This document shows, in pieces, positions 13,139 through 33,379 of a DNA stretch of 33,689 bases (position 1 is the first letter of the stretch; every line of letters begins with the position of its first letter). The position numbers and the translations under genes were made by a program. The notes beneath the pieces were generated by a model. The model ran no database searches and was not told the DNA's origin. It saw only the letters and a list, made by a program, of their open reading frames with translations. Location: IMG/VR virus record IMGVR_UViG_3300045988_054881; one strand, written 5' to 3'. Source of the DNA: a virus.

Positions 13139-13314
13139 TACGGCATAGTTTTTCAAATAAACTCCTTTGTCGTTGGTTTATACACACGAAATACCTACAT
13201 TTGCGGCTCTCACATACCTGTGAGGCCGTTACAAACCTATTCTAAATTAAATAATAAATTACAAAAACGGTTTGTAACACTTATCTATCTCACTTTCAAG
13301 TACTTATCTAAAAG

Positions 13315-13701
13315 TGTGACAAACTAAAAAAGTCAGTAACCACTTTTGTAACCACTTTTGTCACAGCTAATCACCTGATCTATTGCAAATTACGCGCTTT
13401 TCACAAGTATGTGACAAAGAAAACGCCTCAAACACTTCCAACAGGAAATATATAGGTATATTGCTATCTCTACATAGCAATATATTCTCTTTTCTAATAT
13501 AAGTGTTAGGGCTATTTTATATACTTACTGTAACACATATATATAAATAATTGATATAGAGGTAGTTAGCTGTGACAAAAGTGGTTACTATCCTGTGACA
13601 TCAACATTTTTCCTTTTTGTTATTTCTACTGATTATCAATTAGTTAGGTGTGACAAAGGAAAAACGCTATACTGATTATCAGCAGGTTAAGTGTGACAAA
13701 C
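13315..13701. promoter_or_regulatory. Non-coding module A. It holds 7 TGTGACA sites, a 23-bp perfect inverted repeat, a conserved hairpin, an AT-rich tract and 42-nt-period direct repeats.
   Basis: No ORF of 60 aa or more falls between 13328 and 13907. Motif coordinates are given in the findings. A stretch of 183 nt is colinear with 29965-30163. Confidence 0.75.
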
Positions 13702-13814
13702 TTTTAGGCACGTAAAATTAATTACTGTGAATTTTTTACTTTTTCTCCTTTTCGAGCGGTACGCCCGCAATCGACTTTTTGAAAGATTTGTCGACGCACC
13801 GAAAATATAAAACA

Positions 13815-13854
13815 AAAGTGCTAATCTGACATTTTGCAATCAAATTAGCACTTT
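13815..13854 (-). terminator. Putative terminator ending the early unit.
   Basis: An 11-bp stem, 'aaagtgctaat' (13815-25) pairing with 'attagcacttt' (13844-54), encloses an 18-nt loop. On the minus strand it is followed by 'tgttttatatttt'. Confidence 0.45.
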
Positions 13855-13907
13855 TTGCTATCACCTTTAAATAGAACACCCTATTCGTAAAAGGCACTAT
13901 CATTTTA

Positions 13908-14345
13908 TCACTCTACTACCTTCTTGACTACCGTTTTGACAAAAGTCCATCCGCCTATCGAACCGTCCCACCGCCAAAGCTGACCGCAAGTTCTGTTTTT
14001 ATTGAACCACGTATAGCGGATAACATTCCCTGCCCTGTCGGTTGAATACTCTCTAGGAACGTCCCGCTCGTTTCGTTTCTCTTCGGCTAGCCTGCCGAGA
14101 TCACGGAAAAGATATTGGCGCTTATTAATTTCCTGCTTATACGAGAAATCTTGTTCCTTCACATACTGGGCTAGCTTGTCAATCCACCCCCTACACTTTG
14201 CCGAACTTACATACCCTCGTCCGTACTTATCCTTGGTAACGCCTTCACTGCACCCGTACCGCCCTATAAATTCCCATATAATAAACGCATGTACGTTCAT
14301 GCTCATGGCAATGTCTATGAACTTAACCGTCGTACATTTCATCAT
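13908..14345 (-). CDS. Hypothetical protein (last gene of the early unit).
   Basis: 145 aa with an ATG start, followed by a hairpin. No motif recognised. Confidence 0.5.
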   Translation of the reverse strand: MMKCTTVKFIDIAMSMNVHAFIIWEFIGRYGCSEGVTKDKYGRGYVSSAKCRGWIDKLAQYVKEQDFSYKQEINKRQYLFRDLGRLAEEKRNERDVPREYSTDRAGNVIRYTWFNKNRTCGQLWRWDGSIGGWTFVKTVVKKVVE

Positions 14346-14466
14346 CTTTCATATTTTTAGTCATCTGCTTCGCTACCTCCCAGAGTACCACGCCAACGCC
14401 CGCCATGAACATTACAACAATCGCACCCGCAAACAACAGTTGCATTAATACTAATATTGCCTCCAT
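14323..14466 (-). CDS. Small single-pass membrane protein of 47 aa (absent from the ORF track).
   Basis: Hand translation gives MEAILVLMQLLFAGAIVVMFMAGVGVVLWEVAKQMTKNMKDDEMYDG*. Its ATG overlaps the upstream stop codon as ATGA (14464-14468). It fills an otherwise empty 120-nt gap. Confidence 0.45.
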   Translation of the reverse strand: MEAILVLMQLLFAGAIVVMFMAGVGVVLWEVAKQMTKNMKDDEMYDG

Positions 14467-14927
14467 CACATTAAAATTATTAGTTTAAACCCGTCTTTCC
14501 TCTTCGCTGCCTCTACCGGATTAATACATTCGGAGACATATATACCTCTCTCAGTTGGTATGTGATCCAAACCCGTAACGATCTGATCTATTATCGGCAG
14601 CCTGTATTTTGCCTCTATGAGTTTCGCCATCCACGACTTTCCCGTTCCGGGTTTCCCTATAATTAGAATACGCATAGGCTTTTCGTCTTCAGCGCGGTCT
14701 AGATCATATTTGCTCACGTACCAATACTTAGCCTGCTCGGTATCGGTAGACGGGATCAGTATAACATCTCCTAGGCTCAGTGCGTCCGCACTCCACCCCA
14801 CGGAAAAACCTTCTACAATTACTGATGCCCCGCGCCCTACAGAGTCATAACCTACTATCTTAACTTCTTCGCCACAAAAACAAAACGTTTCGCCTGCGTG
14901 TAGCTTCGCAAATTTAATATCATTCAT
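14466..14927 (-). CDS. Fusion of the novel 'FA..AG...VGY...GW' domain with a minimal P-loop segment.
   Basis: 153 aa. The N-terminus 'FAKLHAGETFCFCGEEVKIVGYDSVGRGASVIVEGFSVGW...YWYV' matches the domain seen in the next three genes. The C-terminal 'ILIIGKPGTGKSWMAKLIE' is a Walker A motif. Confidence 0.6.
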   Translation of the reverse strand: MNDIKFAKLHAGETFCFCGEEVKIVGYDSVGRGASVIVEGFSVGWSADALSLGDVILIPSTDTEQAKYWYVSKYDLDRAEDEKPMRILIIGKPGTGKSWMAKLIEAKYRLPIIDQIVTGLDHIPTERGIYVSECINPVEAAKRKDGFKLIILM

Positions 14928-15165
14928 ATACTTCTAATTCTTTAACGGTTGCATATCTTATTCGTCCCGCCTGCACTCTACAAGTGAAGACATGCGCGGG
15001 ATCATTTTTCATGTCTTCATATTTCCACCCACCCTTTAACCCGGTGACTATAACTCTCATGTTCCGTTCGGACTTTCTAACATATCCTACTACCCGGACT
15101 TTTTTACCTTCATACCGGGCTTCACGCCCGGCACATAAGGTTGCGAATGTCTTTGCACTTACCAC
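14920..15165 (-). CDS. Novel small-domain protein (array copy).
   Basis: 'FATLCAGREARYEGKKVRVVGYVRKSERNMRVIVTGLKGGW...IRYATVKELEVY'. The ORF-track start at 15204 is a TTG codon that overlaps the upstream gene by 46 nt. A GTG at 15165 gives an N-terminus comparable to the paralogs. The start remains uncertain. Confidence 0.5.
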   Translation of the reverse strand: MVSAKTFATLCAGREARYEGKKVRVVGYVRKSERNMRVIVTGLKGGWKYEDMKNDPAHVFTCRVQAGRIRYATVKELEVYE

Positions 15166-15449
15166 AGTGGTATTTCTTTTAGAGAAACCACCGCGGCATA
15201 CCAAAAACGTTTAGCTTTCGTTTTACACGTGAATTTGTCCTCGTAATCAAGATGGCGCCACCCCCTTCTGTGTGTTATGATTACTCTATCATAACTGTAG
15301 CCAACTACACGCACTCTACTTCCGTCTCCGTCAAATGTATAATAACGCCCCGCGTTATCCTCGGCAAACTGTCTTGCCGATACATCTTCGATTGGGATAA
15401 GCTGATCCCTGGTAACGTACAGACACCTTTCAACTTTGCCGTCCCACAT
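15159..15449 (-). CDS. Novel small-domain protein (array copy).
   Basis: 96 aa with an ATG start. 'FAEDNAGRYYTFDGDGSRVRVVGYSYDRVIITHRRGW...FWYAAVVSLKEI'. Confidence 0.55.
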   Translation of the reverse strand: MWDGKVERCLYVTRDQLIPIEDVSARQFAEDNAGRYYTFDGDGSRVRVVGYSYDRVIITHRRGWRHLDYEDKFTCKTKAKRFWYAAVVSLKEIPLW

Positions 15450-15476
15450 TCTCTCTTAAAAATTCTAGTGTTCCCA

Positions 15477-15953
15477 TTATAATACCTCCTCTAATTCTGT
15501 TTGACCTACATACCAGTATAAATCATATACGCTTTTCTTTAATACCTTATCCGTCGGGCTGAACATCTTGTGTGACCACCCCTTGAATTGTCTCCCAATG
15601 ATAATTGCCAAGTCTTCACGGTTGGCGTTTGAATACCCGCACAGGGTGACAAATTCGGGGCCCCCGCCTCTTGAAACATACTTGAACTTCTTTCCGGCTT
15701 TTTCCGTGGCAAACTCTTCGTCAGTTACGGGTTGAAGTTGATTAATCGCCGCCCACCAAAGGTGTTCGCCTCTAGAACTACAAACGAACGTTATCGGTAT
15801 GTGGGTGTACTGTGCTCCCCACCCAAGCGAAAAGCCGCTAACCAATATTTCTACACCTCGTTTTTCCTCGCTGTAACCTACTAACTTCACAATCTCATTG
15901 TGGTACCGGAAAAACTTTCCTGCATTCTCTTCTGCGAATTTTTTAGTTTCCAT
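15477..15953 (-). CDS. Protein with two tandem copies of the novel small domain.
   Basis: Copy 1 is 'FAEENAGKFFRYHNEIVKLVGYSEEKRGVEILVSGFSLGW...LWWAAINQL'. Copy 2 is 'FATEKAGKKFKYVSRGGGPEFVTLCGYS...IIIGRQFKGW...LYWYVGQTEL'. I chose the ATG at 15953 ('METKKF') because the ORF-track start at 15995 lies inside the promoter -7 box. Confidence 0.6.
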   Translation of the reverse strand: METKKFAEENAGKFFRYHNEIVKLVGYSEEKRGVEILVSGFSLGWGAQYTHIPITFVCSSRGEHLWWAAINQLQPVTDEEFATEKAGKKFKYVSRGGGPEFVTLCGYSNANREDLAIIIGRQFKGWSHKMFSPTDKVLKKSVYDLYWYVGQTELEEVL

Positions 15954-15981
15954 ATTAATTACTGTTTTTAATTTGATACTG

Positions 15982-16035
15982 CAAATATAACTCATTTAGA
16001 GATACGTTGTTTCTTTTGTTAACGTTATTTAAGAA
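15982..16035 (-). promoter_or_regulatory. Phage promoter cassette copy 1 (drives the small-domain array).
   Basis: The minus strand reads CTTAAATAAC-GTTAAC-N8-CAACGTAT-N12-TATATTTG, followed by the leader 'CAAATTAAAAAC'. The cassette overlaps the SNF2 stop codon. Confidence 0.65.
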
Positions 16036-29840: not shown

Positions 29841-30234
29841 TTTGTGCGTGTAACAGCTAAATTGTTGCATATCAAGGCATTATAAAAACGTGTGACAGAT
29901 TCAAATGTTATAGTAACATAAATGTAACACTGTAAGTTGTTGTAGGTCTGTGGGTTACTAGCGCTGTGACAAAAACACGCCTAAAATTCCCTTATACTTT
30001 TATTTCGTTGTTTTGCAATTTATACCCCTATATTGTAATCTCTGATATTACAATAATCTATTTTCTCGAATAAGTATAGGGCTATTTTTATATATTTGCT
30101 GTAACAGATATAGTTAAGTAGTTGTAATAGAGCAAGTTAGCTGTGACAAAAGTGGTTACTATCTCAAATGTTAATGTAACATAATCTCATAAGTTATTAT
30201 AAATGAGCTGTTTAACTGTGACAACGGTGTGACA
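29825..30234. promoter_or_regulatory. Non-coding module B. It holds 5 TGTGACA sites, 3 ATGTTA-N3-TAACA(T/C) palindromes, a conserved hairpin and the 29-nt core shared with module A.
   Basis: No ORF of 60 aa or more falls between 29759 and 30287. Coordinates are given in the findings. Confidence 0.75.
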
Positions 30235-31867: not shown

Positions 31868-32259
31868 GTCTTTATAAATCCGTCCTCTTGCATCTTGCGT
31901 ATAAGAGGTTGGAAAAATAAATCGGCTTTGGCCCGTTCTGCCTCAACCCGTTTGACTTTACTTGTGTCGGGAACGACAATAGAGTTTCCGTATGTCTGAA
32001 TCTTGACACCTGTAGTAGTGCTGTTCTGATCTGCAATCTGCAAATATCTAGCAAAAGCGTAGTAACATATCACTTTCTCGGCACCTGCGTAGTTCAAGCC
32101 ATCAGATATATACTGAGAAGGAATTGACTCGTACATATTACCCGATTGGGGAAGTATGTCGAGTAAGTCCGCCTCAAAAAAGGCCTTTTCAATCTTATTA
32201 TCTTTTACGTCCGCTGCAATCTCAAATAACTGCCGGAACATCGTTAGCGGGTATGCCAT
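31828..32259 (-). CDS. Hypothetical virion-associated protein.
   Basis: 143 aa with an ATG start. Overlaps the end of the portal gene by 38 nt. Confidence 0.4.
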   Translation of the reverse strand: MAYPLTMFRQLFEIAADVKDNKIEKAFFEADLLDILPQSGNMYESIPSQYISDGLNYAGAEKVICYYAFARYLQIADQNSTTTGVKIQTYGNSIVVPDTSKVKRVEAERAKADLFFQPLIRKMQEDGFIKTCTVVNTRIGLIK

Positions 32260-33379
32260 CTTCGTCGAACTTGTTTCTAATCTCCGTTAAGGAAGGATCA
32301 ATGTTAAACAATTGGGATAACTCTCGAGAAATACGCTCTCTCACCTTCAATAGGCTGTTTCTGTAGACTTTCTGCAACTCCTTGATAACTTCACCAGAAG
32401 CATTAGAAAAGGTCAGCAACGAACTGTCAATGAGCGGTAGCGGTATGTTATATGCAGCTATCGCAATATCCTTTCGTAGAGGTTCGACATAAGCCCGGTA
32501 CAAGTCCTTATCAATGGCTGTTCCTAACTGATCCACTTTGATAAATGGTTTGTCGGTGGCTACGTTCTCATCCCGGACGGTCAGAACTGATCCCGCGTTT
32601 TCACTACCCATCATTTCCTCAAGTGTCTTGCGAAACTCGTTTTGCGCTGCTTCCGTCTCAAAGTCACCGTGTGAAACAATTGAACACATGTGAAAGCCCC
32701 TGCCCAACGTACGGTTAACATAACGGCCGTTCTTGTCTTCTGCGCCCATCTCGTTACGTACTGCATGGAATAGGCTTAACGGGTACGGCCGTGTCGTTCC
32801 AAGGTTCACATACAAAAGCTGCCCTTTGTGATTTTCGATGCCGCCACACTCTTCGACTTCTGCCGCAAAGTTATTCGGATCAAAAGTTGGGTACGAAGTT
32901 GAGTTTTGTGCTATATTGGTAGCTTTAACAGACTGCCTGTCCCAGTTATTGAAAACACGCCACTTCTTCACGTGCGGATCATTCAGATAATTATCGTTCA
33001 GTTCTGCACGGACGTAATCGAAGGGGACGGGATAGATGTCAACGGGTTTGTAGCCTACAGGCGTTATCCCATATTGCACAATCCACGCCCACCCTTTGAA
33101 TCTTGAAATGTCGTTGGCAGTAAACTCGAGAATATCGTTCATGTTCAAGCCGTTTTGGTTTGTCTTGTCTGCGAAATCTTTATTCCTAAAGCCTTCACAA
33201 ATGATATTCTCGGTCATCTTTTCAACTGCCGCACTTGCCGTTTTCGAGGCATAAATAAGTTCTGCAATCTCCTGCGGATATAAATTGTTTTCTCCGTAGT
33301 TCATGATCTTATCGCCTGTGTTGGCTGTCAGCTTCAACGCCCGCTCTACAATTAAAGAAAAACGACTAAAACATGCCAT
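32222..33379 (-). CDS. Portal protein (putative).
   Basis: 385 aa. 'YGENNLYPQEIAELIYASKTASAAVEKM' and 'LRKDIAIAAYNIPLPLIDSS' resemble conserved portal segments. This rests on pattern recollection and has not been searched. Confidence 0.55.
   Translation of the reverse strand: MACFSRFSLIVERALKLTANTGDKIMNYGENNLYPQEIAELIYASKTASAAVEKMTENIICEGFRNKDFADKTNQNGLNMNDILEFTANDISRFKGWAWIVQYGITPVGYKPVDIYPVPFDYVRAELNDNYLNDPHVKKWRVFNNWDRQSVKATNIAQNSTSYPTFDPNNFAAEVEECGGIENHKGQLLYVNLGTTRPYPLSLFHAVRNEMGAEDKNGRYVNRTLGRGFHMCSIVSHGDFETEAAQNEFRKTLEEMMGSENAGSVLTVRDENVATDKPFIKVDQLGTAIDKDLYRAYVEPLRKDIAIAAYNIPLPLIDSSLLTFSNASGEVIKELQKVYRNSLLKVRERISRELSQLFNIDPSLTEIRNKFDEDGIPANDVPAVI

Follow-up and report, generated by a model that had tools for sequence, protein, structure and literature searches.

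What do four consecutive small genes, which repeat one and the same unrecognised domain directly behind a helicase gene, contribute to the phage that carries them? We address this question for the IMG/VR virus record IMGVR_UViG_3300045988_054881, analysed as one stretch of 33,689 nucleotides (nt) and referred to as the window. On its minus strand, five homologous copies of a domain of ~75 amino acids (aa; segments of ~75-80 aa), named d1 to d5, are spread over the adjacent genes A to D. The array consists of tandem paralogues of an orphan, phage-restricted domain family. It is laid out as follows (ORF, open reading frame).

15477-15953, minus strand: gene A, 158 aa, two copies (d1 and d2); a longer ORF option spans 15477-15995, of which 15953 is the second ATG
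15726-15953, minus strand: copy d1, in gene A
15480-15725, minus strand: copy d2, in gene A
15430-15477, minus strand: stub ORF MGTLEFLRENVGRQS* of 15 codons, directly after the stop of A; orphaned start of an ancestral two-domain gene B
15159-15449, minus strand: gene B, 96 aa; a 20-aa remnant of a removed copy, d0 (15387-15449), then intact d3
15171-15383, minus strand: copy d3, in gene B
14920-15165, minus strand: gene C, 81 aa, one copy (d4); GTG start overlapping the stop of B; longer ORF option 14920-15204
14923-15162, minus strand: copy d4, in gene C
14466-14927, minus strand: gene D, 153 aa; copy d5 fused to a ~70-aa P-loop-like tail
14691-14927, minus strand: copy d5, in gene D

All four genes are found at the coordinates given in the first-pass annotation of this DNA; they are on the minus strand. 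Its statement that the genes overlap one another is correct for B and C and for C and D, but not for A and B, between which the stub ORF is located. The start of gene A at 15953 rather than 15995 is supported by comparison with relatives (for which L numbers denote loci and P numbers proteins). The ~70-nt leader between the stop of the SNF2 helicase gene and ATG 15953, which holds the sequence TATATTTG, is conserved in five relatives, among them L001, where a different array gene comes next and the upstream ATG frame is closed by TGA. Thus, the leader is non-coding and gene A starts at 15953, a start that P0002 likewise supports. For gene C, the orthologues P0004 and P0006 are also 81 aa long and carry an ATG at the position equivalent to its GTG start.

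The repeat, which had been read as five copies across four genes, is significant by shuffle test, BLASTP and profile search. Ten alignment columns are invariant across the five copies (F6, A7, A11, G12, V22, G26, Y27, G44, W45, and L73). Pairwise Smith-Waterman comparisons yield z = 4.1-20 against 500 shuffles, with 8 of the 10 pairs never equalled by any shuffle, and BLASTP E-values between copies range from 2e-13 to 3e-3. Moreover, a profile built from the copies, run on all six translated frames of the window, recovers each of them (E 1e-23 to 1e-33) and detects no further copy there. The literal motif pattern given in the first-pass annotation fails, matching none of the five copies (0/5), whereas a slightly relaxed core, FA...AG-x8-16-V.[VLI][VC]GY-x8-20-GW, has exactly five matches in the six frames, which are the five copies, and no other site.

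Orphan status and predicted fold of the domain

The domain lies outside the characterised families, in line with the earlier failure to match it to any. Genes A, B, and C have no Pfam match at E<=1, the domain has no match in NCBIfam or PADLOC, and a sequence search of the PDB returns nothing better than E~1. In PHROGs, only the sub-threshold phrog_22142 (E=0.031), a family of unknown function, is retrieved, and no functionally annotated family matches. An exhaustive hidden Markov model (HMM) search of 1.84 billion representative proteins yields 91 relatives at E<=1e-3 and 25 at E<=1e-10, all of them unnamed, and a word-indexed search of 5.8 billion proteins yields 49 clusters, all unnamed metagenome proteins, several of which are encoded on ~33-kb contigs. 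Sensitive profile searches therefore place the domain in no well-characterised family. With a narrower alignment, no copy is detected in 185,579 GTDB genomes, and hence there is no sign of prophage copies; the locus search in IMG/VR with this narrower alignment recovers three loci only. Gene C as query against IMG/VR finds no relative, megablast of the 5-kb region against GenBank phages gives no match, and neither does tblastn of gene A and of P0043 against phages, the cultured phages yielding only the divergent EMB1_00021 type.

All five copies fit the definition of the orphan family, namely a profile match together with FAxxxAG ... VxVVGY ... GW ... [WY]Y ... L, and the core residues are conserved over the 91 representative clusters, in phages of several Bacteroides and Phocaeicola hosts. 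The weak multi-stretch matches of the 2,924-aa protein P0112 and of the S-layer protein P0129, which contains S-layer homology (SLH) and immunoglobulin-like domains, were set aside as probable repeat artefacts.

An AlphaFold2 model of d1 on a 28-sequence alignment (predicted local distance difference test score, pLDDT, 86.4; predicted template modelling score, pTM, 0.76) comprises a helix at residues 2-9, strands at 14-17, 20-28, 35-39, and 65-68, and short bridges. The domain is thus predicted to be an SH3-like small barrel with an extra N-terminal helix, a fold class within which we leave the superfamily unspecified. In the sequence, the N-terminal helix corresponds to FAxxNAGK and is followed by the barrel strands VxVVGY / VIV / GW / WY. 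Foldseek finds no significant match in the PDB, the best being the CAP-Gly domains of TBCE, CLIP-170, and Bik1, followed by PsaE, Tudor, and eIF5A-N. CAP-Gly, PsaE, and Tudor domains share with our domain a ~70-residue barrel of short strands without a catalytic motif and a superficial V-x-V-x-G-Y ... G-W strand-turn pattern. However, the CAP-Gly superpositions remain below significance (Foldseek E 0.27-5, query-normalised template modelling score 0.55-0.61, identity 10-17%), none of these folds contains the FAxxNAGK helix, and there is no sequence-profile relationship, so that the likeness holds at the level of the fold class only. CAP-Gly domains bind EEY/F tails through their GKNDG motif, which is absent from the five copies and from the 28-sequence alignment.

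In BFVD, by contrast, Foldseek matches uncharacterised human-gut phage proteins with template modelling (TM) scores of ~0.8 and E down to 7e-4. True family members, by fold (TM ~0.8) or by profile (E 1e-8 to 1e-13), are A0A8S5SAA6, A0A8S5V375, and A0A8S5V142 from BFVD and the cultured-phage proteins EMB1_00021 and BU241P1_00012-13. Compared to the window, these are more divergent, show an altered N-terminal helix motif, occur in 1-3 rather than 5-6 copies, and are all annotated 'hypothetical protein'.

Two further small folds deserve comparison. Sm and Hfq proteins consist of an N-terminal helix and five bent strands and assemble into rings; the order of the secondary-structure elements and the size are alike, and the six copies of the canonical array bring a hetero-hexamer to mind. 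We rejected this ring idea, as no Sm, LSm, or Hfq structure is found in the best 50 of 95 PDB matches (E<=10), though many are in the library, Sm1/Sm2 motifs are absent, and relatives differ in their number of copies (1 to 6). DUF2158 (PF09926), a small phage and bacterial barrel of the domain of unknown function (DUF) type, is fused C-terminally to two domain copies in the distant homologue P0095. It is absent from the window and constitutes a distinct family without a profile match to our domain. Taken together, the copies belong to a new, unnamed sequence family inside a very common fold class, and their setting is of a known type, a variable island of small genes between phage modules.

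Turnover of the array and the P-loop-like tail

By gene content and sequence kinship, the window is a ~34-kb lytic-type siphovirus near the Bacteroides uniformis phages EMB1 and BU241P1. Its DNA polymerase is 76-79% identical at the protein level to those of twelve ~33-36-kb phages of B. uniformis and B. xylanisolvens, including EMB1, BU241P1, and BU1-1, a kinship that makes Bacteroides very probably the host. EMB1, a pac-type phage, and EMB2 are siphoviruses that form clear plaques and have circularly permuted genomes; for EMB2, headful packaging has been predicted (PMC9584325). In the window, the gene order on a single strand throughout is replication block, array, TerS and TerL (the terminase subunits), tape-measure protein, and endolysin. 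According to PHROG and Pfam matches, the replication block encodes Cas4-like and other exonucleases, a Gp2.5-like single-stranded DNA-binding protein, DNA polymerase A, a primase-helicase, a VRR-NUC protein, and the SNF2 helicase. A 385-aa ORF at 32222-33379 (minus strand) matches the PHROG 'portal protein' (E 9e-40) yet lies distant from terL; one would expect this position in a circularly permuted genome whose late operon continues across the ends of the window, but the label may also be a loose one.

Ten distinct related loci and several duplicate or fragmentary contigs were compared, with domain copies mapped by profile. The array site is located between the conserved SNF2 helicase and a gene pair encoding a 48-aa peptide and a 145-aa protein, at the distal end of the replication block and before the packaging genes. 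In the close relatives L004 and L011, six copies occupy four genes in the order d1+d2 / d0+d3 / d4 / d5 with or without the tail. The ancestral layout in the clade of the window is consequently six copies in four genes (A, d1 and d2; B, d0 and d3; C, d4; D, d5 and tail). Variants of this layout include L001, which is devoid of gene A, L005 with another deletion in d0, L004 with an interrupted d2, and L009, in which d1 and d2 are fused to a single 77-aa protein (P0029). The distant relatives L006 and L014 carry three single-domain genes in the order type-1, d4-like, d5-like, and L007 carries three and a remnant. Among the cultured phages, EMB1 and BU241P1 contain three divergent copies and BD26P1 one, directly after SNF2 and annotated hypothetical. 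Copy number among the relatives hence spans 1-6, and the window is left with five after losing d0.

The loss of d0 can be traced at the nucleotide level. In the alignment to L004, L009, and L011, the window displays a 131-nt out-of-frame deletion with its junction at ATGT(A)GGGA microhomologies. This deletion took most of d0, and gene B now begins with an ATG that the junction either created or preserved, so that its first 20 residues, MWDGKVERCLYVTRDQLIPIE, equal the C-terminus of the removed copy. The frameshift thereby accounts for both the 15-codon stub and the restarted gene B with its d0 remnant, while the two-copy gene B of 146-152 aa persists in relatives such as P0001 and L004. In these comparisons, copies are gained, fused, truncated, and lost via short-homology deletions.

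Nucleotide similarity to the distant relatives is found in the SNF2, 145-aa protein, and TerS genes, whereas none is detectable over 14466-15995, which marks the array as a hypervariable island. The ratio of non-synonymous to synonymous substitution rates (dN/dS, omega) of orthologous copies is 0.1-0.6, compared to 0.03-0.12 for the SNF2 helicase. On these ratios, the array genes are real coding genes under purifying, but relaxed or diversifying, selection; a reading as spurious ORFs was rejected in view of conservation and dN/dS below 1. Length variation of another kind is seen in the L007 type, where the otherwise near-identical proteins P0040, P0043, P0044, P0046, and P0047 differ in a lysine run in the VGY-GW loop, from KK to KKKKKKKK. 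This variation suggests slippage at a poly-A tract that alters loop length in frame. At the other end of the SNF2 gene, a homing endonuclease gene (HNH_3/I-HmuI-like) is located just upstream in L001 (2008-2553), L005 (1519-2067), and BU241P1 (L016, 1080-1613) and is absent there in the window, which looks like a presence/absence polymorphism of a mobile element.

The most conspicuous appendage of the array is the C-terminal tail of gene D.

14469-14690, minus strand: P-loop-like tail of D, with RILIIGKPGTGKS-helix-YRLPIID in residues 83-153
14634-14657, minus strand: Walker A motif GKPGTGKS, residues 91-98 of D, fitting GxxxxGK[ST]

The Walker A motif is preceded by the hydrophobic strand RILIIG and followed by a helix. 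A nucleoside triphosphatase (NTPase) core is expected to comprise at least five strands and ~150 aa or more, for which ~70 aa are too few. No Walker B motif is found in the ~70-aa tail, the acidic candidate after the GIYVS strand being E, R, N, or D depending on the orthologue. In these respects the first-pass annotation, which had noted a Walker A motif in a segment of this length, too short for an NTPase and without clear Walker B, was right. Its description of a 'minimal P-loop' does not extend to a conserved unit. Walker A reads GKPGTGKS in the window and L004, GKPGTGKT in L009, and GKPETGKS in L005, but is degenerate in L001 (GAPGKDRA) and in P0063 and P0025 (GELGPETS), although the rest of the tail is still conserved; in L011, P0010, and P0016, the whole tail is deleted.

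Models of adenylate kinase, AAA, and IetA match the tail over their initial ~30 positions, below every curated cut-off, and FtsH gives weak matches of ~60 positions (E 0.06-0.3). The tail shares with these P-loop kinases and AAA ATPases the strand, the Walker A motif, and the helix, but lacks a nucleoside monophosphate-binding domain, LID, Walker B, and sensor elements. A search for wider homologues of the tail gave two fragments from the same clade only. The AlphaFold model of full-length D is poor (pLDDT ~50 overall, 62-74 in the tail) and hints at a beta-alpha-beta-beta-alpha-beta unit; its Foldseek matches (dihydrofolate reductase, AAA, and others; E>0.1, TM ~0.2) were disregarded as meaningless. 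Since close orthologues have a degenerate Walker A or lack it, an essential NTPase role is unlikely, and the tail would rather be the vestige of an adenylate-kinase-like N-terminus. The Walker A motif in gene D should accordingly not be read as evidence of ATPase activity.

Candidate functions of the array

We give about an even chance to the reading that the array encodes non-enzymatic binding modules acting as host-interaction proteins. Conserved positions of the domain are core hydrophobics, glycines, and aromatics rather than a polar catalytic set, and length and sequence variation across the 28-sequence alignment is concentrated in two loops. The net charge differs strongly between copies, from -8.4 in d5 to +7.6 in d4, with d3 at +3 and d1 and d2 neutral. 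Further, in distant homologues the domain has many fusion partners that are unrelated to one another, among them C-terminal domains of unknown kind, membrane segments, zinc-ribbon-like segments, and DUF2158; for the fusion proteins P0093, P0050, and P0095, the contigs are only ~1 kb long and add nothing on gene context. Together, the conserved core without a catalytic set, the loop variation, the spread of charges, and the varied fusions argue for non-enzymatic binding modules.

In the mechanism we propose by analogy, the invariant residues would make up the hydrophobic core, the turns at glycines, and a cluster of aromatic residues (Y27, W45, W/Y66-67), and the variable loops from VGY to VIV and from GW to WY would, together with charge, give each paralogue its own surface on one scaffold. 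In the replication phase, the paralogues may then each engage a macromolecule of their own, from host or phage, and the array would serve as a diversifying set of adaptors or inhibitors for host takeover or counter-defence. The D tail (beta-P-loop-alpha-beta...) might be retained as a small alpha/beta appendage, independent of nucleotide hydrolysis. Such a host-takeover or anti-defence role, already suggested by the first-pass annotation, would fit copy-number flux, relaxed selection, and a hypervariable site, which agree with accessory host-interaction genes; from its position at the distal end of the replication block, the array may be expressed early, as the first-pass annotation had assumed. 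No characterised anti-defence protein is found among the best 50 matches of the general PDB or BFVD fold searches.

Three observations weigh against the binding-module reading. The PDB fold matches (E>=0.27, TM 0.5-0.6, at most 0.61 when query-normalised) single out no specific ligand-binding barrel at significance. The fold of the D tail can be described only tentatively owing to its poor model. Finally, every relative examined has at least one copy adjacent to SNF2, which in L006 and L007 overlaps the helicase stop, and this universal copy could mean a replication-linked function of the whole group, with which it agrees as well as with a dispensable accessory role.

The last point leads to a rival in which the proteins would assist the SNF2 helicase or the replication-recombination machinery as accessory subunits or adaptors, the barrel docking on the helicase or on DNA-bound partners. 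The site immediately 3' of SNF2 is invariant in 10/10 distinct relatives, the first array gene of L006 and L007 overlaps the helicase stop codon, and orientation and block are shared with the polymerase, primase-helicase, exonucleases, and VRR-NUC. However, the helicase evolves at an omega of ~0.05, whereas the array evolves 5-10 times faster and changes in copy number; the synteny may merely mark the edge of a conserved module; and the distant member L015 (65-kb contig) lies amid small ORFs with no adjacent helicase shown, its neighbours not having been scanned against domain libraries. We consider such adaptors improbable. Also unlikely, if marginally less so, are nucleic-acid-binding or regulatory barrels of the Sso7d, KOW, or Tudor type, in which the basic d3 and d4, along with the 145-aa protein, would have phage DNA or RNA or the RNA polymerase of the host as binding partners when early gene expression gives way to late, the TGTGACAAA repeats of the two non-coding control regions being a possible target. 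Copies d3 (+3) and d4 (+7.6) are indeed basic, Tudor and KOW-like barrels are among the weak fold matches, and the cassette is immediately upstream of the control region preceding terS, where six exact TGTGACAAA are found, with a second cluster at 29.9-30.2 kb and conservation in close relatives. Yet the basic charge is not shared by the strongly acidic d5 or the neutral d1 and d2, the copy number of 1-6 has no evident tie to repeat number, L006, L007, EMB1, and BU241P1 possess the domain without TGTGACAAA, and the fold matches are all non-significant. Moreover, repeats such as those upstream of terS are usually bound by TerS.

That D functions as a minimal P-loop NTPase or kinase, targeted to a substrate by its barrel, with the other copies as regulators or decoys, appears very unlikely. 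The canonical GKPGTGKS between strand RILIIG and a helix in the window and L004, the partial P-loop matches to adenylate kinase, AAA, and IetA, and the low-confidence beta-alpha-beta-beta-alpha-beta unit speak for it. They are opposed by a tail of ~70 aa without Walker B and with a variable candidate acidic position, by the loss of the Walker A lysine in L001, P0063, and P0025 while the remaining tail is conserved, by the deletion of the tail in L011, P0010, and P0016, and by profile matches that end after ~30 residues with no wider homologues. Least credible of all, the copies would be decaying, functionless duplicates, neutral junk in a recombination hotspot. Truncations, fusions, and frameshifts are frequent (the stub of the window, the L009 fusion, the L004 interruption, the L005 deletion), and the omega of d1 is near 1 among the closest relatives, at small counts. 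Nevertheless, most pairwise omega values are 0.1-0.5 at synonymous divergence (dS) up to 1.4, the core residues are conserved across the 91 clusters from phages of several Bacteroides and Phocaeicola hosts, and every relative keeps at least one intact copy.

Within the binding-module reading, we tentatively raise a more specific and rather doubtful form, a modular 'specificity cassette': one small-barrel scaffold that is duplicated, shuffled, and deleted at short homologies would yield a shifting repertoire of inhibitors or adaptors directed at the defences or core factors of gut Bacteroides hosts, and loop lengths would change at the poly-lysine (poly-A) tracts in some relatives. If true, abundant human-gut phages would have a new anti-defence or takeover family of their own, with cultured members of the EMB1, BU241P1, and BD26P1 type at hand. 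Phages of Bacteroides and Phocaeicola rank with the most abundant human-gut viruses, and roles are, to our knowledge, assigned to hardly any of their small non-structural proteins. The family offers a confident fold, a fixed genomic address in cultured and uncultured phages, and visible birth-and-death dynamics, and relatives without single copies or without the P-loop tail are natural 'knock-outs' that serve as ready controls. These features make it a tractable entry to phage-host interaction factors in Bacteroides. If the array genes are merely dispensable accessories, the value is that of a new DUF entry only.

Neighbouring genes, signals, and repeats

The array is framed by the following features.

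15982-15989, minus strand: candidate -7 promoter element TATATTTG, putative motif match, 29 nt upstream of the ATG of A (15953)
14323-14469, minus strand: 48-aa single-pass membrane peptide, start overlapping the stop of D; Kyte-Doolittle maximum 2.66 over 19 residues
13908-14345, minus strand: 145-aa basic orphan protein (isoelectric point 9.6), last gene of the putative unit
13814-13855, minus strand: terminator-like hairpin, 17-bp stem and T-run, 53 nt past the stop of the 145-aa ORF; consensus match only

The Bacteroides -7 consensus is TAnnTTTG. This motif is over-represented in the window (50 occurrences against 30.6 +/- 5.5 expected, 33/50 on the coding, minus strand), an excess consistent with a Bacteroidota host. 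A sigma-70 promoter scan is at chance level (12 against 10.1 expected), the sigma-70 model being unsuited to a Bacteroides host, and Rfam and tRNA scans of the window are empty. Given the hairpin after the 145-aa ORF, a transcription unit comprising A, the stub, B, C, D, the 48-aa peptide, and the 145-aa protein is plausible. The single cassette promoter proposed in the first-pass annotation may then be the candidate element TATATTTG.

Both downstream genes always come after the array in relatives, EMB1 and BU241P1 included. The 48-aa peptide is kept as an ORF of 42-51 aa in close relatives and has a 37-aa counterpart in BU241P1. The 145-aa protein has no Pfam, PHROG, or NCBIfam match; its relatives form 55 unnamed clusters, all from the same phage group, one of which has 2,832 member sequences, and it is abundant in metagenomes. 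Its EMB1 homologue is EMB1_00016.

A 204-aa ORF of BU241P1 (L016, 5125-5739), annotated hypothetical, is found in a region that is non-coding in the window; by eye, its PVCTEFS and ENP recall a cytosine-C5 methyltransferase.

Upstream of terS, an AT-rich non-coding region of ~840 nt contains TGTGACAAA in both orientations, with six exact matches inside a 390-nt span (13271-13700). These are part of longer 31-nt direct repeats and of an inverted pair of 29 nt (13348-13376 / 13560-13588). The other large non-coding region carries a second cluster (29891-30225) of two exact and two near copies, and with one mismatch allowed the motif occurs 18 times in the window against 9.4 expected. Close relatives have 4-6 copies upstream of terS, and the motif is absent in more distant relatives. 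The repeats are probably binding sites, candidate targets of a regulator or of the terminase.

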